Shown in pieces: positions 3,708-37,159 of a stretch of DNA of 64,000 nucleotides; the stretch's first letter is position 1, and the number at the start of each line of letters is the position of its first letter. Below the pieces are notes generated by a model that saw nothing but the letters and a program-made list of their open reading frames with translations, was not told the DNA's origin and ran no database searches. The DNA lies in the NCBI GenBank assembly GCA_016218545.1, contig JACRDQ010000038.1, positions 66,986 to 130,985 on the forward strand, given 5' to 3'. Source of the DNA: Elusimicrobiota bacterium. Lineage in GTDB: Bacteria; Elusimicrobiota; Elusimicrobia; UBA1565; UBA9628. A program made the translations under genes and the position numbers.

Positions 3708-5131
3708 TGGCTGCGCGGCGCGCAGGGGGGCTGAGCATCAGGGGCAGGCTCCTCCTGGGGTCCGCCGGGGTCATCCTGCTCTTCGGAGGTCTTGTGCTGG
3801 CAGGGCTCTACCGGGCTATGCTCGGCTTGTTCATGGAGGAGCTGGTCCGCAGGGGGTACGCCATCGCGGACACCCTGCTGGAGCCGTCCCAGAATCTCCT
3901 CCTGACGGAGGACTCCTTCGCGCTCCAGCAGGTCCTCCAGTCCTCGCTCAGCCGCCACCATGACGTGCGCTACGCGTTCGTGGCTGATGCCGAAGGCAGG
4001 GTCGTGTCTCATACGTTCATGGGAGGCTTCCCCAAAGGGCTTGACCGGGCGGTGCTGCTGGACCCCGGAGAGGCATCCCGCTCCCGTCCCGTGCGCACCG
4101 AGGAGGGCTTGATCTACGACGTGGGCGTGCCCTTGCAGGGCCTGGGGAGCATCCATGTGGGGATGCGGTCCGCCGAGGTCGCCCGCCGCGTCGTCAGGGA
4201 CACCATGGGCTGGGGCAGCACCGCCGCAGGGGCGCTCATGCTGGGCGCGGTGGTCATCTGGTGGCTGACCGGCCGCCTGGCCGCGCGCCTGAAGGATCTG
4301 GTGGGAGCGGCGGAGGAGGTGGGCGCGGGCAGGCTCGACGCGGTCGTGCAGGACCGCGGGGAGGACGAGGTGGGGCGCCTGGCCAGGGCCTTCAATGCCA
4401 TGACGCGGGACCTCAAGGAATACCAGGCCCGGGCCCTGAGGGCCGGGAAGCTCGCCGCCATCGGCGAGCTCGCCTCTTGCGTGGCCCATGAGATCAACAA
4501 CCCCCTCAATACGATGGGGGTTTGCGCCCAGGCCCTTCTTGAGCGGGCATCGAGCCCGGAGCTGCGCGCGTCCGCCGAGTTCTCCGACTTCCCGGAATAT
4601 CTCAAGACCATCGACAGCGAGGTGAGCCGCTGCAAAAGGATCACGTCCGAGCTCCTGCTCTTCGGACATCCGCGCGAGCCCCGCCTGGAGCCCGTGGACC
4701 TCAATGAGCTCGTCTCGGAGTCCCTCGGACTGCTCGAGCACAGGCTCCGGGGCGCGGAGGCGGCGGTGGAGACGGTCCTGGCCCCGGGGTTGCCGAGGCT
4801 CCATGCCGACTCGGACCAGCTCAAGCAGGTCCTCCTCAATCTCGTGGGAAACGCCCTCGATCACATCAGACCCGGCGGTCAGGTCCGGATCGCGACGGCC
4901 AAGCATGGCCGGGAGCTGGCCTTGAGCGTCACCGACGACGGGCCGGGCATCCCGCCCGAGCATCGCGACAAGGTCTTCGACCTCTTCTTCACCACGAAGA
5001 AGGCCGGCGCGGGCTCGGGGCTCGGCTTGGCGATCTGCCAGAGGATCGTCGACAGCCACGGGGGCCGCATCGCGGTCGAGAGCCGGCCGGGCCGGGGCGC
5101 TGTCTTCACCGTTTCCCTTCCCATCCGCTGA
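3704..5131 (+). CDS. Sensor histidine kinase with TM, HAMP, HisKA and HATPase domains
   Basis: The ATG at 3704 overlaps the upstream stop codon (gagATGAtgg). There is a TM region and a HAMP-like segment. The H-box is ELASCVAHEINNPLN. The ATPase N, G1 and G2 boxes are present (NLVGNALDHI, DDGPGIP, GSGLGLAICQ). The longer ORF given in the track (from 3428) is an out-of-context upstream extension. Confidence 0.8.
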   Translation: MMAARRAGGLSIRGRLLLGSAGVILLFGGLVLAGLYRAMLGLFMEELVRRGYAIADTLLEPSQNLLLTEDSFALQQVLQSSLSRHHDVRYAFVADAEGRVVSHTFMGGFPKGLDRAVLLDPGEASRSRPVRTEEGLIYDVGVPLQGLGSIHVGMRSAEVARRVVRDTMGWGSTAAGALMLGAVVIWWLTGRLAARLKDLVGAAEEVGAGRLDAVVQDRGEDEVGRLARAFNAMTRDLKEYQARALRAGKLAAIGELASCVAHEINNPLNTMGVCAQALLERASSPELRASAEFSDFPEYLKTIDSEVSRCKRITSELLLFGHPREPRLEPVDLNELVSESLGLLEHRLRGAEAAVETVLAPGLPRLHADSDQLKQVLLNLVGNALDHIRPGGQVRIATAKHGRELALSVTDDGPGIPPEHRDKVFDLFFTTKKAGAGSGLGLAICQRIVDSHGGRIAVESRPGRGAVFTVSLPIR

Positions 5132-5262: not shown

Positions 5263-6165
5263 ATGAACGTGATGTCGACGCGCATGAGGATGTCAGGCTC
5301 GATCGTCATTTTGGGATTGGCGCTGGGGGTCGTGCCGGTGGCCTTCGGCGCGGAGGCTCCGGCTGCCGCCGGGACCGAGAAGTGCCAGTCATGCCACGCG
5401 GACGTCGCCAAGGCGTTCGGGTCGACCAAGCACGGCAAGGCCGCCTACTACGGCGTGCAGGGAGCCGGCTGCGTGTCGTGCCACGGCGAAAGCGAGAAGC
5501 ACGCGGGCTCCGGGGATAAGGCGGACGCCTTCAACCCCGCGAAGGCCGACCCCGAGAAGGTCAACGAGACCTGCCTGGAGTGCCACAGCAAGACCAAGGC
5601 CCTGATGTTCTGGAATGGGAGCGCCCACTCGAACAACGAGCTCGGCTGCGTCGCCTGCCATTCGGTCCACGGCGGGAAGGACAAGCTCCTCAAGGCCGCG
5701 GACGACAAGGCCGTGTGCTTCACCTGCCACAAGAACGTCCGGGCCGCGATGTTCGCCCGCTCCAAGCATCCGATGCGGGATTCCTCCAATCCCAAGGGCG
5801 AGGGCAAGATGACGTGCGCCTCCTGCCACAACCCGCACGGCTCCGAGTCCGAGAAGCTCATCAGCGCGAAGTCCGTCAACGACAAGTGCTATGAGTGCCA
5901 CACGGAGAAGAAGGCCCCGCTCCTCTGGGAGCACTCCCCGGTCAAGGAGGACTGCCTCACCTGCCACGCCGCTCACGGCGCGGCCAATGACAAGCTCCTC
6001 ACGGTCCGCCCTCCCAGGCTCTGCCAGTCGTGCCACATGCAGGGGCGCCACCAGAGCGGCACCTTGGACGTCAACTCCGTGTACGCGATCGGCAGGTCCT
6101 GCTTGAACTGCCATCCGATGGTGCACGGCTCCAACAGCCCGTCGGGCCCCGTCCTTCAGCGGTGA
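5263..6165 (+). CDS. Periplasmic decaheme c-type cytochrome of the MtrA/MtoA/PioA family
   Basis: Ten CXXCH motifs are present: CQSCH, CVSCH, CLECH, CVACH, CFTCH, CASCH, CYECH, CLTCH, CQSCH and CLNCH. The mature part is about 300 aa, which is MtrA/MtoA size. An N-terminal signal peptide is present (MNVMSTRMRMSGSIVILGLALGVVPVAFGA). The start could equally be 5248. Confidence 0.85.
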   Translation: MNVMSTRMRMSGSIVILGLALGVVPVAFGAEAPAAAGTEKCQSCHADVAKAFGSTKHGKAAYYGVQGAGCVSCHGESEKHAGSGDKADAFNPAKADPEKVNETCLECHSKTKALMFWNGSAHSNNELGCVACHSVHGGKDKLLKAADDKAVCFTCHKNVRAAMFARSKHPMRDSSNPKGEGKMTCASCHNPHGSESEKLISAKSVNDKCYECHTEKKAPLLWEHSPVKEDCLTCHAAHGAANDKLLTVRPPRLCQSCHMQGRHQSGTLDVNSVYAIGRSCLNCHPMVHGSNSPSGPVLQR

Positions 6166-14493: not shown

Positions 14494-14670
14494 ACTATAG
14501 GATAGGCCCGAGACGGGGGTCCGGGTGAGGGCATTCAGGCCCAGGAAAGGGGAGGCATCGGGCCCCTCCCGGCCTGGGGCCTAGGGCCTAGTGAGGGTGT
14601 AGCCCCGGGCCGTGACCTCGGTGCAGGTCCTGCGGCATTTGATACCATGAGAGGACGCGAGGAGGCATGA

Positions 14671-15240
14671 ATGGGACTCTTTGATCTGCTGAAGGGACTG
14701 CTGGGCGGCGGGAGCGACAAGGGCAAGGTCGAGCCCGCCTTCATCCAAGGCGAGAGCGGCCAGGTCATCGTGCACCGGCATTCAGGCTTCCGGTTTCCGC
14801 AGGACGTGAGCGAGTATGTGGGCGTGGGCCCCACCCAATACGACGAGAAGGGCCTCGACGTCTCGGTGGGCTATAACCATGCCAAGCTCATGGGCCTGGC
14901 CGTGACCGTCTATGTCTATCCCGATTCCGGGGGGCCTGGGTCCCTGGCCGGACAGTACGAGGGGTGCAAGGCCGAGGTCAGCGGAGCGCACGCGAGCGTC
15001 AAGGTCCTTTCCGAGGAGGTCCTCTCCGGGGCTCCGAACGGGACCCAGACCGAGGGGCGCAAGGCCTTGTTCTCCTTTGAGGACGAGCTCGGTGGCATCA
15101 ATCTCTCCTCCCTGTCGGAGCTCTGGCTCTTCTCCCACAAAGGCTTCTTCATCAAGTTCCGCGCCAGCTACCCGGATTCGATGAAGCCGCACGCGCCGCA
15201 GGCCGTGGTCGGTCTTATTAAGGAACTTAGTTGGCCCTGA
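14671..15240 (+). CDS. Hypothetical protein, 189 aa
   Basis: ORF with a plausible start and no recognisable motifs. It is convergent with the giant CPBP fusion gene. Moderate GC, about 62%. Confidence 0.35.
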   Translation: MGLFDLLKGLLGGGSDKGKVEPAFIQGESGQVIVHRHSGFRFPQDVSEYVGVGPTQYDEKGLDVSVGYNHAKLMGLAVTVYVYPDSGGPGSLAGQYEGCKAEVSGAHASVKVLSEEVLSGAPNGTQTEGRKALFSFEDELGGINLSSLSELWLFSHKGFFIKFRASYPDSMKPHAPQAVVGLIKELSWP

Positions 15241-28389: not shown

Positions 28390-28541
28390 ATGAGTCGACC
28401 TCCAGGAAATTGCGCCTTACGCGCGAATTAGGCGACATATGATAGCAAAATCTTGGAAGAGCCTTGGGTCCTTGGACCTAGGCCCGGCTGGGCCCTCCGT
28501 CGCTGTCCGCCGGGGATCTCCGCGGCTAGACTTATAGATAG

Positions 28542-30280: not shown

Positions 30281-31303
30281 TTATACTAACCCGGCAGGAC
30301 GAAGGGAAGCGTCTGTATGGGATGAGGCGCGGTTCCAGATGAGGGCCAGGGGGCGGCCCGAGGAGAGGACCGTGGAGAGCTCGCGTGGGGCTGCCCCGCG
30401 GGACGCGCCCTTCTTCTTGGCGGCTTTCATGCGGAACATCCGGGTGTCGGCCTCGTTGATGAAGTCCGAGACGGACTGGTCGTGTCCGAGGGTCGCGACG
30501 CCGAAGCTGAAATCGAGCCCGTCGAGTTCGGGGTTGGCGCGGGCCCCTGCCACGATCCTCTCGGCCACGCGGCGCGCTTTCTCCGCGGGCAGGCCGGGCA
30601 GGAGGATGACGAACTCGTCGCCGCCGTAGCGGTAGGCCGAGTCCACGCCCCGCCGCACCTTCTCCATGATCGCGCCTGCGAAGACCTTGAGGACGCGGTC
30701 GCCTTCGAGGTGGCCCTTGAGGTCGTTGAGTGCCTTGAACCCGTCGAGGTCGATGACCACGATGGAGAGCTTGTAGCGCTGGCGTCTGGCGCGGCCCGCT
30801 TCCTGGACGATCCGTTCCTGGAAATGGCGCTGGTTGTGCAGACCGGTCAGGTTGTCCGTGATGGAGAGCTCGCGCAGGCGCCGCTCGAGCTCGATGCGGT
30901 CCGTGATGTCCTTGGAGATCCCCAGGGTCCCGATGACGCGGCCTGAACGGTCCTTGAGCAGGGAGGCCGACATGCTCACGTGGATGAGCCCGCCCGCCTT
31001 GGTCTTGAGGGCCATCTCGTAGTTGGCGACGCTGCCCTGCTTCCTCAGGACGCCCATGATGGCCTTGGCCTCGGTCAGGCCTCCGGCATAAAAGGAATGG
31101 GCGGGCTGGCCCATGGCCTCCCGCGCCGGGACTCCCAGCATCCTCTCCGCCCCGGGGCTGAAATAGATGATGCGGCCGTTGGTGTCCGTGGTGCAGATGG
31201 CGTCGGAGGTGGAGGTGACGATGGCCTCGAGGTATTCCTTGGCGCGCACGAAATCCGCGGACAAGTGGACCAGGGGCGTCGGCTCCATGTCGCGGATCGG
31301 CAT
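30281..31303 (-). CDS. PAS-GGDEF diguanylate cyclase
   Basis: A PAS fold is at the N-terminus. The GGDEF domain has active site RYGGDEF and the upstream DNLTGLHNQRHF motif. Confidence 0.85.
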   Translation of the reverse strand: MPIRDMEPTPLVHLSADFVRAKEYLEAIVTSTSDAICTTDTNGRIIYFSPGAERMLGVPAREAMGQPAHSFYAGGLTEAKAIMGVLRKQGSVANYEMALKTKAGGLIHVSMSASLLKDRSGRVIGTLGISKDITDRIELERRLRELSITDNLTGLHNQRHFQERIVQEAGRARRQRYKLSIVVIDLDGFKALNDLKGHLEGDRVLKVFAGAIMEKVRRGVDSAYRYGGDEFVILLPGLPAEKARRVAERIVAGARANPELDGLDFSFGVATLGHDQSVSDFINEADTRMFRMKAAKKKGASRGAAPRELSTVLSSGRPLALIWNRASSHTDASLRPAGLV

Positions 31304-31382
31304 ACAGAGAGTTTAACGGTCGGGGGGGAGGGAGGCCAGGGGCCTAGGGCCTTGGCACCCCGTAGGTCCTTTGACCCTGTAT

Positions 31383-31475
31383 GGGGTCAGACCCTGACAT
31401 TGGAAAATCTGACATTGACGTTGGGATGTCGAGCGTGTCCCAATGTCAGATTTTCCAATGTCAGGGTCTGACCCC
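31383..31475. repeat. 93-bp perfect palindrome (35-bp arms, 23-nt spacer) containing four TGACATTG half-sites. It would serve as a terminator for the upstream receiver gene and/or an operator upstream of the PAS-GGDEF gene.
   Basis: Left arm GGGGTCAGACCCTGACATTGGAAAATCTGACATTG (31383-31417) is the exact reverse complement of 31441-31475. Each arm carries a direct repeat CTGACATTG..(N6)..CTGACATTG. Confidence 0.9.
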
Positions 31476-31488
31476 TATCTACGGCGAC

Positions 31489-31872
31489 CTATTTCTTTCG
31501 GTGCTCTTCGAGGGCGAAGATGTGCTCGATCTTCGCCTTGAGGTCCTCGACGCTCACGGGCTTGGCCAGGTAGTCCACCGCGCCGAAGAGGAGCGCGTCG
31601 TTGACCGTGGCCGCGTCGGCCAGGGCGCTGACGATGAGGATGGGGATGTGGCCGGTCTTGGCGTTGGTGCGGATCTCCCGGGTCAGGCTGATGCCGTCCA
31701 CCCCGGGCATCATGACGTCCATGAGGATGAGGTCGGGCAGGTGTTCCGTGAGGCTCGCCCGGGCGGATTCGGCGTCTTCGACGGTGGCGATCTTGTACCC
31801 GAAGATGGGCAGCCCCTGTTCGTAGAAGTCCCGCATGGACGGGTCGTCGTCGATGGCGAGGATCGTCTTCAC
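31489..31872 (-). CDS. Stand-alone CheY-like receiver protein (GTG start)
   Basis: The protein reads VKTILAIDDDPSMRD...LILMDVMMPGVDG...YLAKP. A GGAGGG RBS precedes the GTG at 31872. The longer ORF in the track is an out-of-context extension. Confidence 0.7.
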   Translation of the reverse strand: MKTILAIDDDPSMRDFYEQGLPIFGYKIATVEDAESARASLTEHLPDLILMDVMMPGVDGISLTREIRTNAKTGHIPILIVSALADAATVNDALLFGAVDYLAKPVSVEDLKAKIEHIFALEEHRKK

Positions 31873-32360
31873 GAGCCCTCCGTGATCCAAGAGTCCAGGC
31901 TGAGCGGGGTCCGCGGCCGCAGGAGGAGCCAGAGGCAGCATCCAGCCAGGGCGGCGTCCAGGAAGATGGTCTGGCCGGGGGCCAGGTGCAGGCCAAAGCC
32001 GAAGCAGCCGCAGTCGGCCAGTTCGAAGCCCCGGCTGAAGGTGGAGAGCAGGGCCGTGATGAACGCGCTGAAAAGGGCCAGGCCGGCCGCGGCGGACCAG
32101 CGGGTGAGCCAGCCGAAGACGAGGGCGAAGCCCGCGAGGACCTCGGCCCACGGCAGGAGGGTCGCCAAGGGCGGGACCAGGGCCTGGGGCAGGAGGGCGT
32201 AGGCCTCGATGGCCGCGGCGAACTCCTGCGCAGGGGCCGATGCCTTGGCCGCGCCGGAGAAGGCCAGGGTCGCGCCCACGAGGACCCGGGCAGTCAGGCC
32301 CAGCCAGTCGGTCCAGGGCCGGCCTTGAGGCAGAGGAGGGGGGGAGAGTCTGCGGGTCAT
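31869..32360 (-). CDS. DoxX/MauE-like polytopic membrane protein (probable thiol-oxidoreductase partner of the upstream DsbA-like protein)
   Basis: Begins at internal Met MTRRLSPP. It is about 160 aa with 4 TM helices and a CGCFG motif (ELADCGCFGFG). There is an ATGA overlap with the DsbA-like gene. Confidence 0.5.
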   Translation of the reverse strand: MTRRLSPPPLPQGRPWTDWLGLTARVLVGATLAFSGAAKASAPAQEFAAAIEAYALLPQALVPPLATLLPWAEVLAGFALVFGWLTRWSAAAGLALFSAFITALLSTFSRGFELADCGCFGFGLHLAPGQTIFLDAALAGCCLWLLLRPRTPLSLDSWITEGS

Positions 32361-33004
32361 CGGTCCTTGCGCTTCCTCTCGATCCACATGGAGCCCAGGG
32401 TGGAGAGCTGGCGCGAGCCCACGAAGCGCCTGCCGGCCACGAAGAAGGTCGGAGTGGCGGAGACGTTCCTGGACTTGGCTTCGGCCATGTCCAAGACCAC
32501 GGCCGCGTCCACGGCCGGGTCCTGGATGCAGGCTTCGAAGGTCTTGGCGTCCAGGCTCAGGTCCGCGGCGTACTTGAGGAACCAGGACTTGGGCGGCGCT
32601 CCGTTCCCGCGAGGGACCCATTCACCCTGCCGTTCGAAGAGCCGGTCATGGTACTGCCAGAAGGCGCCTTGGCGGCCGGCGCACTCCGCGGCCGCTGCCG
32701 CGGCCCTGGCCGAGTGGTGCATCCGTTCCAGGGGGAAGTGCTTGAACTGCAGGCGGACGTCCTTGCCGTAGGCGGCAAGCATGGACTTCACGGTCCCGTG
32801 CGCCGCGCTGCAGGCCGGGCACTCGAAATCCGAGAACTCGACGATGAGGATGGAGGCTCCCGGGTCGCCGGTCTGCCTGTAAGGCGGGGGCTCGGAGGAA
32901 GCGGATTTGACGGTCTTGGACGCGGCCAGCACGCAAAGGGCCGAGACGGCCGCGATCGCGGCTCCGCTCAGCAGGGTGCGCCCCTTTCTGGAGGCCGGCA
33001 GCAT
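32357..33004 (-). CDS. DsbA-like thioredoxin-fold thiol:disulfide oxidoreductase (CPAC active site), possibly leaderless
   Basis: Start at Met14 (MLPASRKG...), because the first 13 codons of the track ORF lie inside the 57-bp hairpin at 33035-33091. A signal peptide is present and the active site is FECPACSA. The start codon is immediately preceded by the -10 sequence TTATAAT. Confidence 0.65.
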   Translation of the reverse strand: MLPASRKGRTLLSGAAIAAVSALCVLAASKTVKSASSEPPPYRQTGDPGASILIVEFSDFECPACSAAHGTVKSMLAAYGKDVRLQFKHFPLERMHHSARAAAAAAECAGRQGAFWQYHDRLFERQGEWVPRGNGAPPKSWFLKYAADLSLDAKTFEACIQDPAVDAAVVLDMAEAKSRNVSATPTFFVAGRRFVGSRQLSTLGSMWIERKRKDR

Positions 33005-33010
33005 GCCGCT

Positions 33011-33039
33011 ATTATAACAGTTGATGACGCCGGTGTCAG
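33011..33039 (-). promoter_or_regulatory. Sigma70-like promoter CTGACA-N17-TATAAT (extended TGtTATAAT) placed for a leaderless DsbA-like transcript
   Basis: On the minus strand the sequence reads CCTGACACCGGCGTCATCAACTGTTATAATAGCGGCATG. The -10 ends 6 nt before the ATG. The -35 lies within the right arm of the 57-bp palindrome. Confidence 0.4.
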
Positions 33040-33091
33040 GCATTCGAAAGATCCGAAAACCTTTGGTTTTCGGATCTTTCGAATGCCTGAC
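33035..33091. repeat. 57-bp perfect hairpin (27-bp arms, 3-nt loop). It would serve as a terminator for the subtilisin gene and overlaps the -35 of the DsbA-like promoter.
   Basis: GTCAGGCATTCGAAAGATCCGAAAACC-ttt-GGTTTTCGGATCTTTCGAATGCCTGAC, read directly. It lies immediately downstream, on the minus strand, of the S8 protease stop at 33100. Confidence 0.9.
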
Positions 33092-33099
33092 GCCAGCAA

Positions 33100-36250: not shown

Positions 36251-37159
36251 ATGAGAAGAGCCGCACTCGTCATCCCGGCCGCAGTCATGGCGTTCGCCCT
36301 GCTGGCGGCCACGGTCCGCGCCGAAGCCCCTGCGTTGGATTTCGACCAGGGCGTCAACGCCTCGGACGTCCTGAAGGCGGCCAAGGCGGCGGCGGCTGAC
36401 TCGAAGGTCGGCAAGGACGTGGTCGTCCGGCCGCTCTACCGCCGCTACGACCGCGACTGCGTCAACTTCACGATCGGCGCCGACGACGCGCCTCAGACCG
36501 AGGCCGTGTGGCTGCGCAGCACCGAGTGGGTGCAGGAGTGCCACCCGACGGGTCCCAACGGCGCTCAGACCTGCTATGACCGGCCGGGCTATACCTACAG
36601 GGAGCGCGCCTCCGTGGCCATCCGCGACCGCGGCCGGCTCTTCCCGTGGGAGTACGACAGCTTCGACGTCTGCCTCGAGGGCCCGTGGCTCAACATCTGG
36701 TCCCGCGAGACCGCCTACGAGTACAAGACCGTGCGGGGCGGGACGTACAACGGCGGCTTCGTGCTCTCCCCGGTCAAGAAGCTCCGCATGAAGCCCGACC
36801 CCGCCGGCATCCGCGTCCAGGCTCTGAGCCCGCAGCTGGCCGCGCTCTTCCGCGACAAGTGGGCCTCCTACTACGCGGGCGAGACCGTCGTGCTCTCGCT
36901 CAAGCTGCGCAAGTCCGTGCCGGGCTGGTTCGACGCGACTTTGCTCGAGCGTGAGCTCTCGTTCGCCGCCGCCGAGACCTACGGGGTGGACTTCATGGCC
37001 TTCGCCGGCGAGTTCTCGCAGAAGCTCGAGGCGGGCAAGCCCTACTACGTCGAGTACTCCTTCAAGAGGCTCAGCAAGATCTCGACGGACAAGCTCCAGA
37101 AGGCGGGGGAGTCCGACAAGGTCGTCTATCAGCCGGCCGCCGCGGCCCTGGGCCGTTAG
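36251..37159 (+). CDS. Secreted hypothetical protein, 302 aa, with 4 Cys
   Basis: The signal peptide is MRRAALVIPAAVMAFALLAATVRAEA. There is no homology recognisable by eye. Confidence 0.4.
   Translation: MRRAALVIPAAVMAFALLAATVRAEAPALDFDQGVNASDVLKAAKAAAADSKVGKDVVVRPLYRRYDRDCVNFTIGADDAPQTEAVWLRSTEWVQECHPTGPNGAQTCYDRPGYTYRERASVAIRDRGRLFPWEYDSFDVCLEGPWLNIWSRETAYEYKTVRGGTYNGGFVLSPVKKLRMKPDPAGIRVQALSPQLAALFRDKWASYYAGETVVLSLKLRKSVPGWFDATLLERELSFAAAETYGVDFMAFAGEFSQKLEAGKPYYVEYSFKRLSKISTDKLQKAGESDKVVYQPAAAALGR

Follow-up and report, generated by a model that had tools for sequence, protein, structure and literature searches.

A dispersed long-hairpin repeat resembling REPINs beside a PAS-GGDEF gene in high-GC uncultured Elusimicrobiota

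The question raised by the locus considered here is whether a long palindrome lying between two signaling genes serves its neighbors as a control element or is a dispersed repeat that has settled beside them. The palindrome occupies positions 31383-31475 of a 64-kb stretch of contig JACRDQ010000038.1 from an Elusimicrobiota bacterium (assembly GCA_016218545.1; the whole stretch of 64,000 nt is hereafter called the window), in the gap between a receiver-domain gene and a gene for a PAS-GGDEF diguanylate cyclase. The original prediction for this site held a plain terminator to be less likely than either of two alternatives, namely an operator bound by a dimeric or tetrameric regulator and a small mobile repeat with structure. 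The comparisons described below reveal a multi-copy element that stands between unrelated genes, has been gained and lost among relatives, is inserted whole and keeps its hairpin. With moderate confidence, it is explained best as a non-autonomous dispersed repeat of the repetitive extragenic palindromic (REP) type or of its hairpin-forming doublet (REPIN), closest to the "double-foot" long REPs and carried by high-GC uncultured Elusimicrobiota, whose mover would resemble the tyrosine transposases that accompany REPs (RAYTs).

A repeat search of the window, combined with motif searches and folding, divides the element into the following parts:

31383..31475, no strand assigned: whole repeat element, a family A copy of 93 bp (repeat search and folding).
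31383..31417, + strand: left arm, GGGGTCAGACCCTGACATTGGAAAATCTGACATTG (repeat search).
31418..31440, no strand assigned: centre or hairpin loop of 23 nt, whose sequence differs between copies.
31441..31475, + strand: right arm, exactly reverse-complementary to the left (repeat search).
31383..31394, + strand, mirrored at 31464-31475: stem foot GGGGTCAGACCC, with AT before it; the foot motif is common to sibling families.
31394..31417, + strand, mirrored at 31441-31464 on the - strand: direct repeat CTGACATTG-N6-CTGACATTG (repeat and motif search).

The description of this element as a perfect palindrome of 93 bp holds for its two 35-nt arms, which are complementary at 35/35 positions, but not for the 23-nt centre between them (ACGTTGGGATGTCGAGCGTGTCC), which is non-palindromic. 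Similarly, the four identical half-sites that had been claimed are all present, arranged as repeat-N6-repeat in each arm, but the repeated unit is the 9-mer CTGACATTG rather than an 8-mer, starting at 31394 and 31409 on the + strand and at 31441 and 31456 on the - strand. These four matches, all of them inside the palindrome, compare with 0.33 expected in the window, and none of 100 shuffles reached four; the complete 35-nt arm marks a single occurrence of the element there. The very stable RNA hairpin that had been proposed was borne out by folding of the palindrome region on the coding - strand (-72.9 kcal/mol, z = -12.1), and the same region folded as single-stranded DNA reached -44.1 kcal/mol (z = -14.0). 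The view that this is no plain terminator also stood, as a U-tract is absent after the stem on both strands (the coding strand continues with AUACAGGG, the opposite strand with UAUCUACG). Simple sequence scans reported neither a promoter nor a terminator at the palindrome, and a search of Rfam 15 returned no match at the gathering score, the best being an animal microRNA precursor model (40.2 bits against a gathering score of 57); such sub-threshold microRNA-model matches are generic matches to long hairpins. As a side observation, the hexamer TGTCAG is rarer in the window than expected (10 versus 23), probably, at a guess, from codon bias at about 90% GC in third codon positions.

One line of evidence comes from copies elsewhere. 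A genome-collection scan with CTGACATTG-N6-CTGACATTG as query listed 117 loci, the window's own genome not being among them, and most of these loci were unrelated 15-bp tandem or coding repeats. The scan also matched nine contigs of one Elusimicrobiota metagenome-assembled genome, JBAZSR01 (66-71% GC), which among the matches listed holds at least nine copies, namely eight full-length copies of the window's type (family A; loci L016, L021/L129, L029, L043, L066, L088, L091 and L108) and one variant. Compared with the window arms, the 16 complete arms of these full-length copies show no mismatch in four cases, one in six, two in two and three in four, and the two arms are complementary at 33-35 of 35 positions in every copy. 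The centre, by contrast, is nearly constant in length and free in sequence: it measures 22-24 nt in 6/8 JBAZSR01 copies (7/9 with the window), the two exceptions measuring 62 and 82 nt, and the centre sequences are essentially unrelated, with a mean best match of 9.1 versus 8.1 +/- 0.3 for shuffles. Equally unrelated are the neighboring genes, which encode Ser/Thr kinases, glycerol kinase, ABC transporters, a type II secretion ATPase, an epimerase, ferredoxin and mevalonate-pathway enzymes. All copies are intergenic, in short spacers, or overlap the last codons of a gene, often lying 2-21 nt past a stop codon, and they are flanked by co-directional, convergent or divergent gene pairs; no transposase lies beside any copy. 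The search for dispersed copies that had been suggested for this element has therefore found at least nine further ones at unrelated sites of JBAZSR01, in keeping with the proposed small structured mobile repeat. An assembly artefact was ruled out, since independent assemblies also contain the element, with the flanking genes intact.

Flanked by a receiver gene on one side and a histidine kinase gene on the other, the variant (L016:5190-5270) keeps four CTGACAT motifs, while its 7-nt linkers are non-complementary (GGCGCAT versus GGAAGAC). It looks like a hybrid, because each linker resembles a different A subfamily. Searches with other strings added no further copies. A metagenome scan with a 21-mer, GGGGTCAGACCCTGACATTGG, found only one unrelated, non-palindromic locus, and a literature search for the string GGGGTCAGACC matched only irrelevant eukaryotic primers. 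At this locus (L123-L127, e.g., L123 5514-5534), the 21-mer occurs once, in an organism of 57% GC from metagenomes of the Joint Genome Institute (JGI), about 30 nt past TTGACG and directly before a strong terminator-like hairpin with a T-run, an arrangement that looks like a small RNA gene.

A second line of evidence is the presence and absence of the element at orthologous loci. In the window, the genes around the palindrome are all on the - strand, in the order MauE/DoxX, receiver, palindrome, PAS-GGDEF and second receiver:

30281..31303, - strand: PAS-GGDEF diguanylate cyclase gene, downstream of the palindrome.
31304..31380, - strand: conserved block upstream of PAS-GGDEF, with GGGTC-AAAG-GACC, CCAAGGCCCTAGGCCCCTGG and a -10-like TAAACT 6 nt before the ATG (alignment).
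31489..31872, - strand: receiver-domain gene, whose GTG start overlaps the MauE/DoxX stop.
31869-32621, - strand: MauE/DoxX open reading frame (ORF), whose stop overlaps the receiver GTG start.

The location given originally, a 185-nt gap between the receiver and PAS-GGDEF genes, was correct; within it the palindrome starts 14 nt past the receiver stop codon (TAG) and ends 80 nt before the PAS-GGDEF start codon. Four syntenic orthologous loci (L118, L120, L121 and L122) were compared with the window, at protein identities of 86%, 83%, 78% and 72%, respectively, and DNA identities of about 73-81%; all four keep the gene order radical SAM, S8 peptidase, DsbA-like, MauE, receiver, PAS-GGDEF, receiver, PLD, OmpA, YfiO and TolB. 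Close homologues of the PAS-GGDEF protein are all found within Elusimicrobiota. In L120 and L121, the gap between the receiver and GGDEF genes holds no palindrome but only short "solo foot" remnants (GGGCCTGACCCC in L120 and GGCGTCAGACCTGACACC in L121; alignment A1). In L118, the gap holds another perfect palindrome, of family B (GGGTGTCACACCTCAACTTATGAAACTTATTC, then tgc, then the reverse complement), whose downstream boundary falls within 1 nt of that of the window element, and in L122 yet another G-rich repeat, containing GAGTAGC. The conservation at orthologous loci expected of an operator is consequently not seen, the element being absent from two relatives and replaced by other palindromes or repeats in the other two. 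The roughly 77 nt adjoining PAS-GGDEF (31304-31380), on the other hand, are conserved in 5/5 genomes. Because it is present whether or not a palindrome is, this block is probably the native promoter or control region of PAS-GGDEF, as judged from the alignment.

Two observations on these relatives may be added. The L122 repeat (GGGGGGCGAGTAGCGGGGGGC and its complement) occurs at 4135-4223 and 5796-5900, which are both of the gaps where the window carries families D and A; since it contains GTAG, it looks like a more canonical REP in sequence. L118 probably represents the same organism as JBAZSR01, because one JBAZSR01 contig and L118 share the JGI sample 3300037810.

The hairpin itself is what the copies maintain. 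In an alignment of the eight A copies, 97.6% of stem cells pair, and the three polymorphic internal stem positions are all compensated in both arms, one of them as four CG and four UA pairs; two stem positions change jointly in L021. The observed covariation was reached by only 4-5 of 500 shuffles, and shifted registers drop to 23-49% pairing. Conservation extends to all 35 arm positions, beyond the CTGACATTG motifs. Family B behaves likewise: its two arms both read GAAAC in L118, and both read GGAAC in L021 and L043. Because the two arms co-vary, what is preserved is the hairpin or the inverted doublet.

The way in which the element inserts is constrained by comparisons of filled and empty sites. 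For the boundaries and lengths checked, no flanking direct repeat, and hence no target-site duplication, was found at any of the eight copies; the 5-bp flanks differ at all of them (TGTAT / TATCT in the window), and the bases outside GGGG...CCCC are usually (A/G)T...A(T/C), which merely lengthen the inverted repeat. After a phosphoesterase gene, L129 carries a family A copy at a place taken up by 34 nt in L131: the complete unit is additional, including the AT-rich centre, for which the empty site has no counterpart. At this filled site (L129 10928-11020), the metallophosphoesterase ORF runs 15 nt into the arm, gaining its last five codons and a TGA stop. A family B copy (L129 9932-9999) lies in the mevalonate operon between isopentenyl-phosphate-kinase-type and metallophosphoesterase genes, where the gaps of relatives measure 14 and 4 nt, and it puts GAGGTG 10 nt before the next ATG. 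No flanking direct repeat was seen in any of the filled and empty pairs (L129/L131 for family A, the family B site, and family D versus L121). The possibility that the centre is captured target DNA was also considered; the window centre resembled the "empty" site of L121 at only p = 0.034 and nothing in L120, and the L129/L131 pair, in which the centre has no counterpart, ruled it out.

A feature of some insertions is a duplication at one end. In 3/8 family A copies, a perfect tandem duplication of 12-14 nt ends exactly at GGGGTCA/GACC (the slash marks the junction). These duplications lie in the left flanks at L016 3207-3230 (12 nt), L091 4549-4576 (14 nt) and L108 2859-2886 (14 nt), and each joins 5-7 flanking nt to the element's initial 7 nt. 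They may mark GGGGTCA/GACC as a cleavage site.

The element belongs, moreover, to a palindrome superfamily with five or more members (families A, B, C, D and F) that share the foot RTGG(G/T)GTCA(G/C)AC and differ in their stems:

Family A: arm GGGGTCAGACCCTGACATTGGAAAAyCTGACATTG; internal direct repeat CTGACATTG, twice.
Family B: arm GGGTGTCACACCTCAACTTATGGAACTTATT; internal direct repeat AACTTAT, twice.
Family C: arm GGTGTCAGACGTTAAG; no internal direct repeat seen.
Family D: arm GGTGTCAGGCATTCGAAAGATCCGAAAACC; internal direct repeat CGAAA, twice.
Family F: arm GGGGTCAGATCTTGAGATTTGAGTTTTCAC; internal direct repeat TTGAG, twice.
33029..33097, no strand assigned: family D palindrome of the window, GCCGGTGTCAGGCATTCGAAAGATCCGAAAACC, with 33-nt arms (94% complementary) and a 3-nt loop.

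The family D palindrome, with foot GGTGTCAGGC, follows the stop codon of the S8 peptidase gene by 2 nt and precedes the DsbA-like ATG (33004) by about 25 nt; it is missing from the orthologous site of L121, and no further copy was found in any locus compared. Family C occurs once nested inside the centre of an A copy, and the family C element of L121 is missing from the window. The foot reads NTGG/GGTCAG (RTGG...CCAY overall), with GTGG in 4/19 arms and ATGG in 9/19; on the - strand, the stem of the window copy has a GTAG 3 nt ahead of it. Different families also meet at the same positions in related genomes: the gap between the receiver and GGDEF genes holds A, B, E and solo feet across relatives, and the site after glycerol kinase holds A and an A-like family. 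The latter case comes from Logan contig L132 of an 84%-identical relative, which ends in the A-like foot GGGGTCAGGTCTGGACATCAGG 8 nt past the glycerol kinase stop codon. Since JBAZSR01 has a canonical A copy where this contig has the A-like foot, the same permissive sites seem to be taken by different family members in relatives. The contig end of L132 (2949-2973) falls inside the A-like foot GGGGTCAGGTCTGGACATCAGGACA, at the position orthologous to the A copy of L043, which suggests that assemblies break at such repeats and that different families reuse sites.

These properties can be set against known systems. According to PMC3337134, a REPIN sets two highly conserved units in inverted orientation around a spacer for which certain lengths are preferred, no two spacers being identical. 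In the REP rule of PMC6006769, a tetranucleotide GT[AG]G stands 0-2 nt from the foot of the stem; the same paper describes "double-foot" long REPs with 5' GT[AG]G and 3' C[TC]AC, and the occurrence of RAYT subclass 2.4 in various phyla. Like the REPIN/RAYT systems (Bertels & Rainey, PMC3116915 and PMC3337134; Quentin et al., PMC6006769), the palindrome is extragenic, dispersed and multi-copy. It shares with REPINs two conserved inverted units that form a long hairpin, a spacer free in sequence and preferred in length, the absence of target-site duplication, several families per genome, a predominance of elements with arms of a single family, and solo remnants; its foot is G-rich and resembles GTGG...CCAC. 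Unlike REPINs, different palindrome families stand at the same orthologous site in related genomes, and the direct repeats in the arms are family-specific. Nothing relevant to REP-type or palindromic repeats in Elusimicrobiota came out of a limited literature search or of a term lookup in one HUH-endonuclease survey. The element represents a new family within a known kind, and for its phylum these two limited literature checks yielded no repeats of this sort.

Under the REP/REPIN reading, the hairpin would be moved in trans as single-stranded DNA by an HUH/Y1 (RAYT-like) transposase encoded elsewhere in the genome, an assignment that draws on analogy with known systems. Such an enzyme would recognize the conserved foot together with the stem and cut near GGGGTCA/GACC. 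The window copy would then have landed in the short spacer between the receiver stop codon and the native promoter block of PAS-GGDEF, and the palindrome would not serve the cyclase gene as a dedicated operator. Locally, the one likely effect would come from the very stable hairpin that it gives the DsbA-MauE-receiver transcript at its 3' end, which could act through partial termination or insulation, as an exonuclease block or as an RNase III site.

Several points weigh against this reading. The direct repeats inside each arm are more typical of transposase-binding sites in the ends of DDE transposons, and the outer 15 nt of the arm resemble what we take to be the Tn3-family inverted repeat (GGGGTCTGACGCTCA...). 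The window holds a single copy, and the plausible effect on the local transcript is a prediction. Searches with E. coli RayT by tblastn and phmmer gave no match to a RAYT/Y1 transposase in 168 kb of Elusimicrobiota sequence, which amounts to a few percent of a genome. In addition, the commonest foot is ATGG and not the canonical GT[AG]G, and the stems are perfect over 33-37 bp, as opposed to the basal stems of 7-20 nt in the REP rule set (PMC6006769).

Among the alternatives, the best surviving one, although unlikely, is a classical miniature inverted-repeat transposable element (MITE), that is, a deletion derivative of a DDE transposon, for instance one resembling the Tn3 family. The arms would then be terminal inverted repeats, the CTGACATTG repeats would be transposase sites, and a full-length element elsewhere would provide mobilization. 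Perfect terminal inverted repeats of 35-37 nt with internal direct repeats would suit such an origin, as would the variation in presence and absence among relatives and the variant copy, which retains its four CTGACAT motifs despite differing linkers. The outer 15 nt match what we take to be the Tn3 inverted repeat at 12/15 positions, and the end of the family C arms, ACGTTAAG, resembles the inner end of that repeat; further likenesses to Tn3 repeats and to the miniature elements derived from them (TIMEs) are the outer end GGGGTC.GAC and the mid-arm GGAAAA. However, no flanking repeat of 5 bp or of any other length checked accompanies the eight copies or the filled and empty pairs, the centres are unrelated among copies, which is unexpected for recent copies of one master MITE, and no transposase adjoins any copy. 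A longer element with the same ends was likewise not found in plasmid and phage blastn searches, in a viral scan (0 matches) or in JGI metagenome contigs. Insertion of the Tn3 family is defined by a 5-bp target duplication, and its inverted repeats measure 38 bp. Given the absence of that duplication, membership among Tn3-derived elements was rejected, and the likeness stays a resemblance; the inner TAAG is also missing in family A, and no Tn3-type transposase was found in these searches. Correia elements (CREE/NEMIS) of Neisseria offer another comparison: they are palindromic elements of about 100-150 bp with long terminal inverted repeats that lie near genes, are co-transcribed and form hairpins affecting mRNA processing or termination, and they duplicate a TA target and conserve their interior. 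The palindrome shares their hairpin and inverted-repeat form, without the duplication and with a hypervariable centre.

A rather doubtful proposal, ranking below the MITE, is that of an undescribed hairpin superfamily defined by the foot RTGG(G/T)GTCA(G/C)AC, with interchangeable stems, foot-specific cutting and rejoining at GGGGTCA/GACC, replacement of one family by another at occupied sites and renewal of the loop at each event, the enzyme perhaps not being a RAYT. This would explain the same-site family swaps, the duplications ending at GGGGTCA/, the hybrid arm pair and the hypervariable loops of fixed length.

Improbable, by comparison, is a protein-binding array, either an operator or a nucleoid-protein site, in which a dimeric or tetrameric regulator of PAS-GGDEF or of a regulon would bind the four CTGACATTG sites together with two palindromic tips. 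Its appeal lies in the inverted 2+2 layout of four identical 9-mers, in the near-constant centre length, which would fix the motif spacing, and in the variant between the receiver and histidine kinase genes of L016 (5190-5270), which keeps the motifs without linker complementarity. The operator, one of the two readings in the original prediction, nevertheless fails on comparison, and both observations that this prediction had named as refuting, many copies at intergenic sites elsewhere and absence from orthologous loci, were made: L120 and L121 lack the palindrome, L118 and L122 carry unrelated palindromes in its place, and the gene-adjoining block is conserved in all; other copies flank functionally unrelated genes, some of them convergent or within the mevalonate operon; all 35 arm positions, and not the motifs alone, are conserved; and CTGACATTG is found nowhere else in the window. 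Finally, a terminator or attenuator of the DsbA-MauE-receiver operon that evolved locally, with its hairpin selected in place, is very improbable, for although the palindrome resembles a Rho-independent terminator in being a very stable stem-loop that starts 14 nt past a stop codon, and many copies and sibling families lie 2-21 nt past stop codons, it lacks a U-tract on either strand, its stem is several times longer, it is absent from orthologous sites, and the same 35-nt arms recur at unrelated, non-terminator positions in another genome, with copies also between divergent genes and in stop-start gaps that measure 4-14 nt in relatives.

The surrounding genes yielded further observations. The 250-aa MauE/DoxX ORF (31869-32621) overlaps the DsbA-like gene (32357-33004), and its orthologues have only 162-163 aa; the true start is therefore probably near 32360, in coupling with the stop codon of the DsbA-like gene. 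On the - strand, two start codons have a -10-like box 6-7 nt ahead of them (33004-33025 and 31304-31315), TGTTATAAT at the DsbA-like ATG and TAAACT at the PAS-GGDEF ATG, and alignments A2 and A1 show the two boxes to be conserved in four or five genomes; boxes so near the start codons suggest, from their sequence and position, leaderless mRNAs in this lineage. The motif CCAAGGNCCYWGGNCC, allowing up to two mismatches, occurs 20 times in the window versus 5.7 +/- 2.6 expected, with clusters at 14570-14592, 14932-14947, 28460-28485, 31333-31358 and 37144-37159. These include a probable divergent gap between TPR and PLD genes and the conserved block before PAS-GGDEF, and the motif may be a clade-specific promoter or operator motif.

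For annotation, these results mean that the palindrome should not be read as a control element of cyclic di-GMP signaling and that the block at 31304-31380 is the better regulatory candidate. The repeats likely break short-read assemblies, as the Logan contig that ends inside one illustrates, and could possibly serve as strain markers. The elements tolerate tight sites, including the mevalonate operon, the phosphoesterase stop codon and the GAGGTG placed before a start codon, and can thereby alter gene ends and operon expression. Co-resident families with one foot provide a compact system for questions of enzyme recognition, and the most promising parts are this common foot, the exchange of families at one site and the duplications at GGGGTCA/GACC. 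If the REP/REPIN reading is true, REP/REPIN-like repeats would extend to uncultured high-GC Elusimicrobiota of groundwater.

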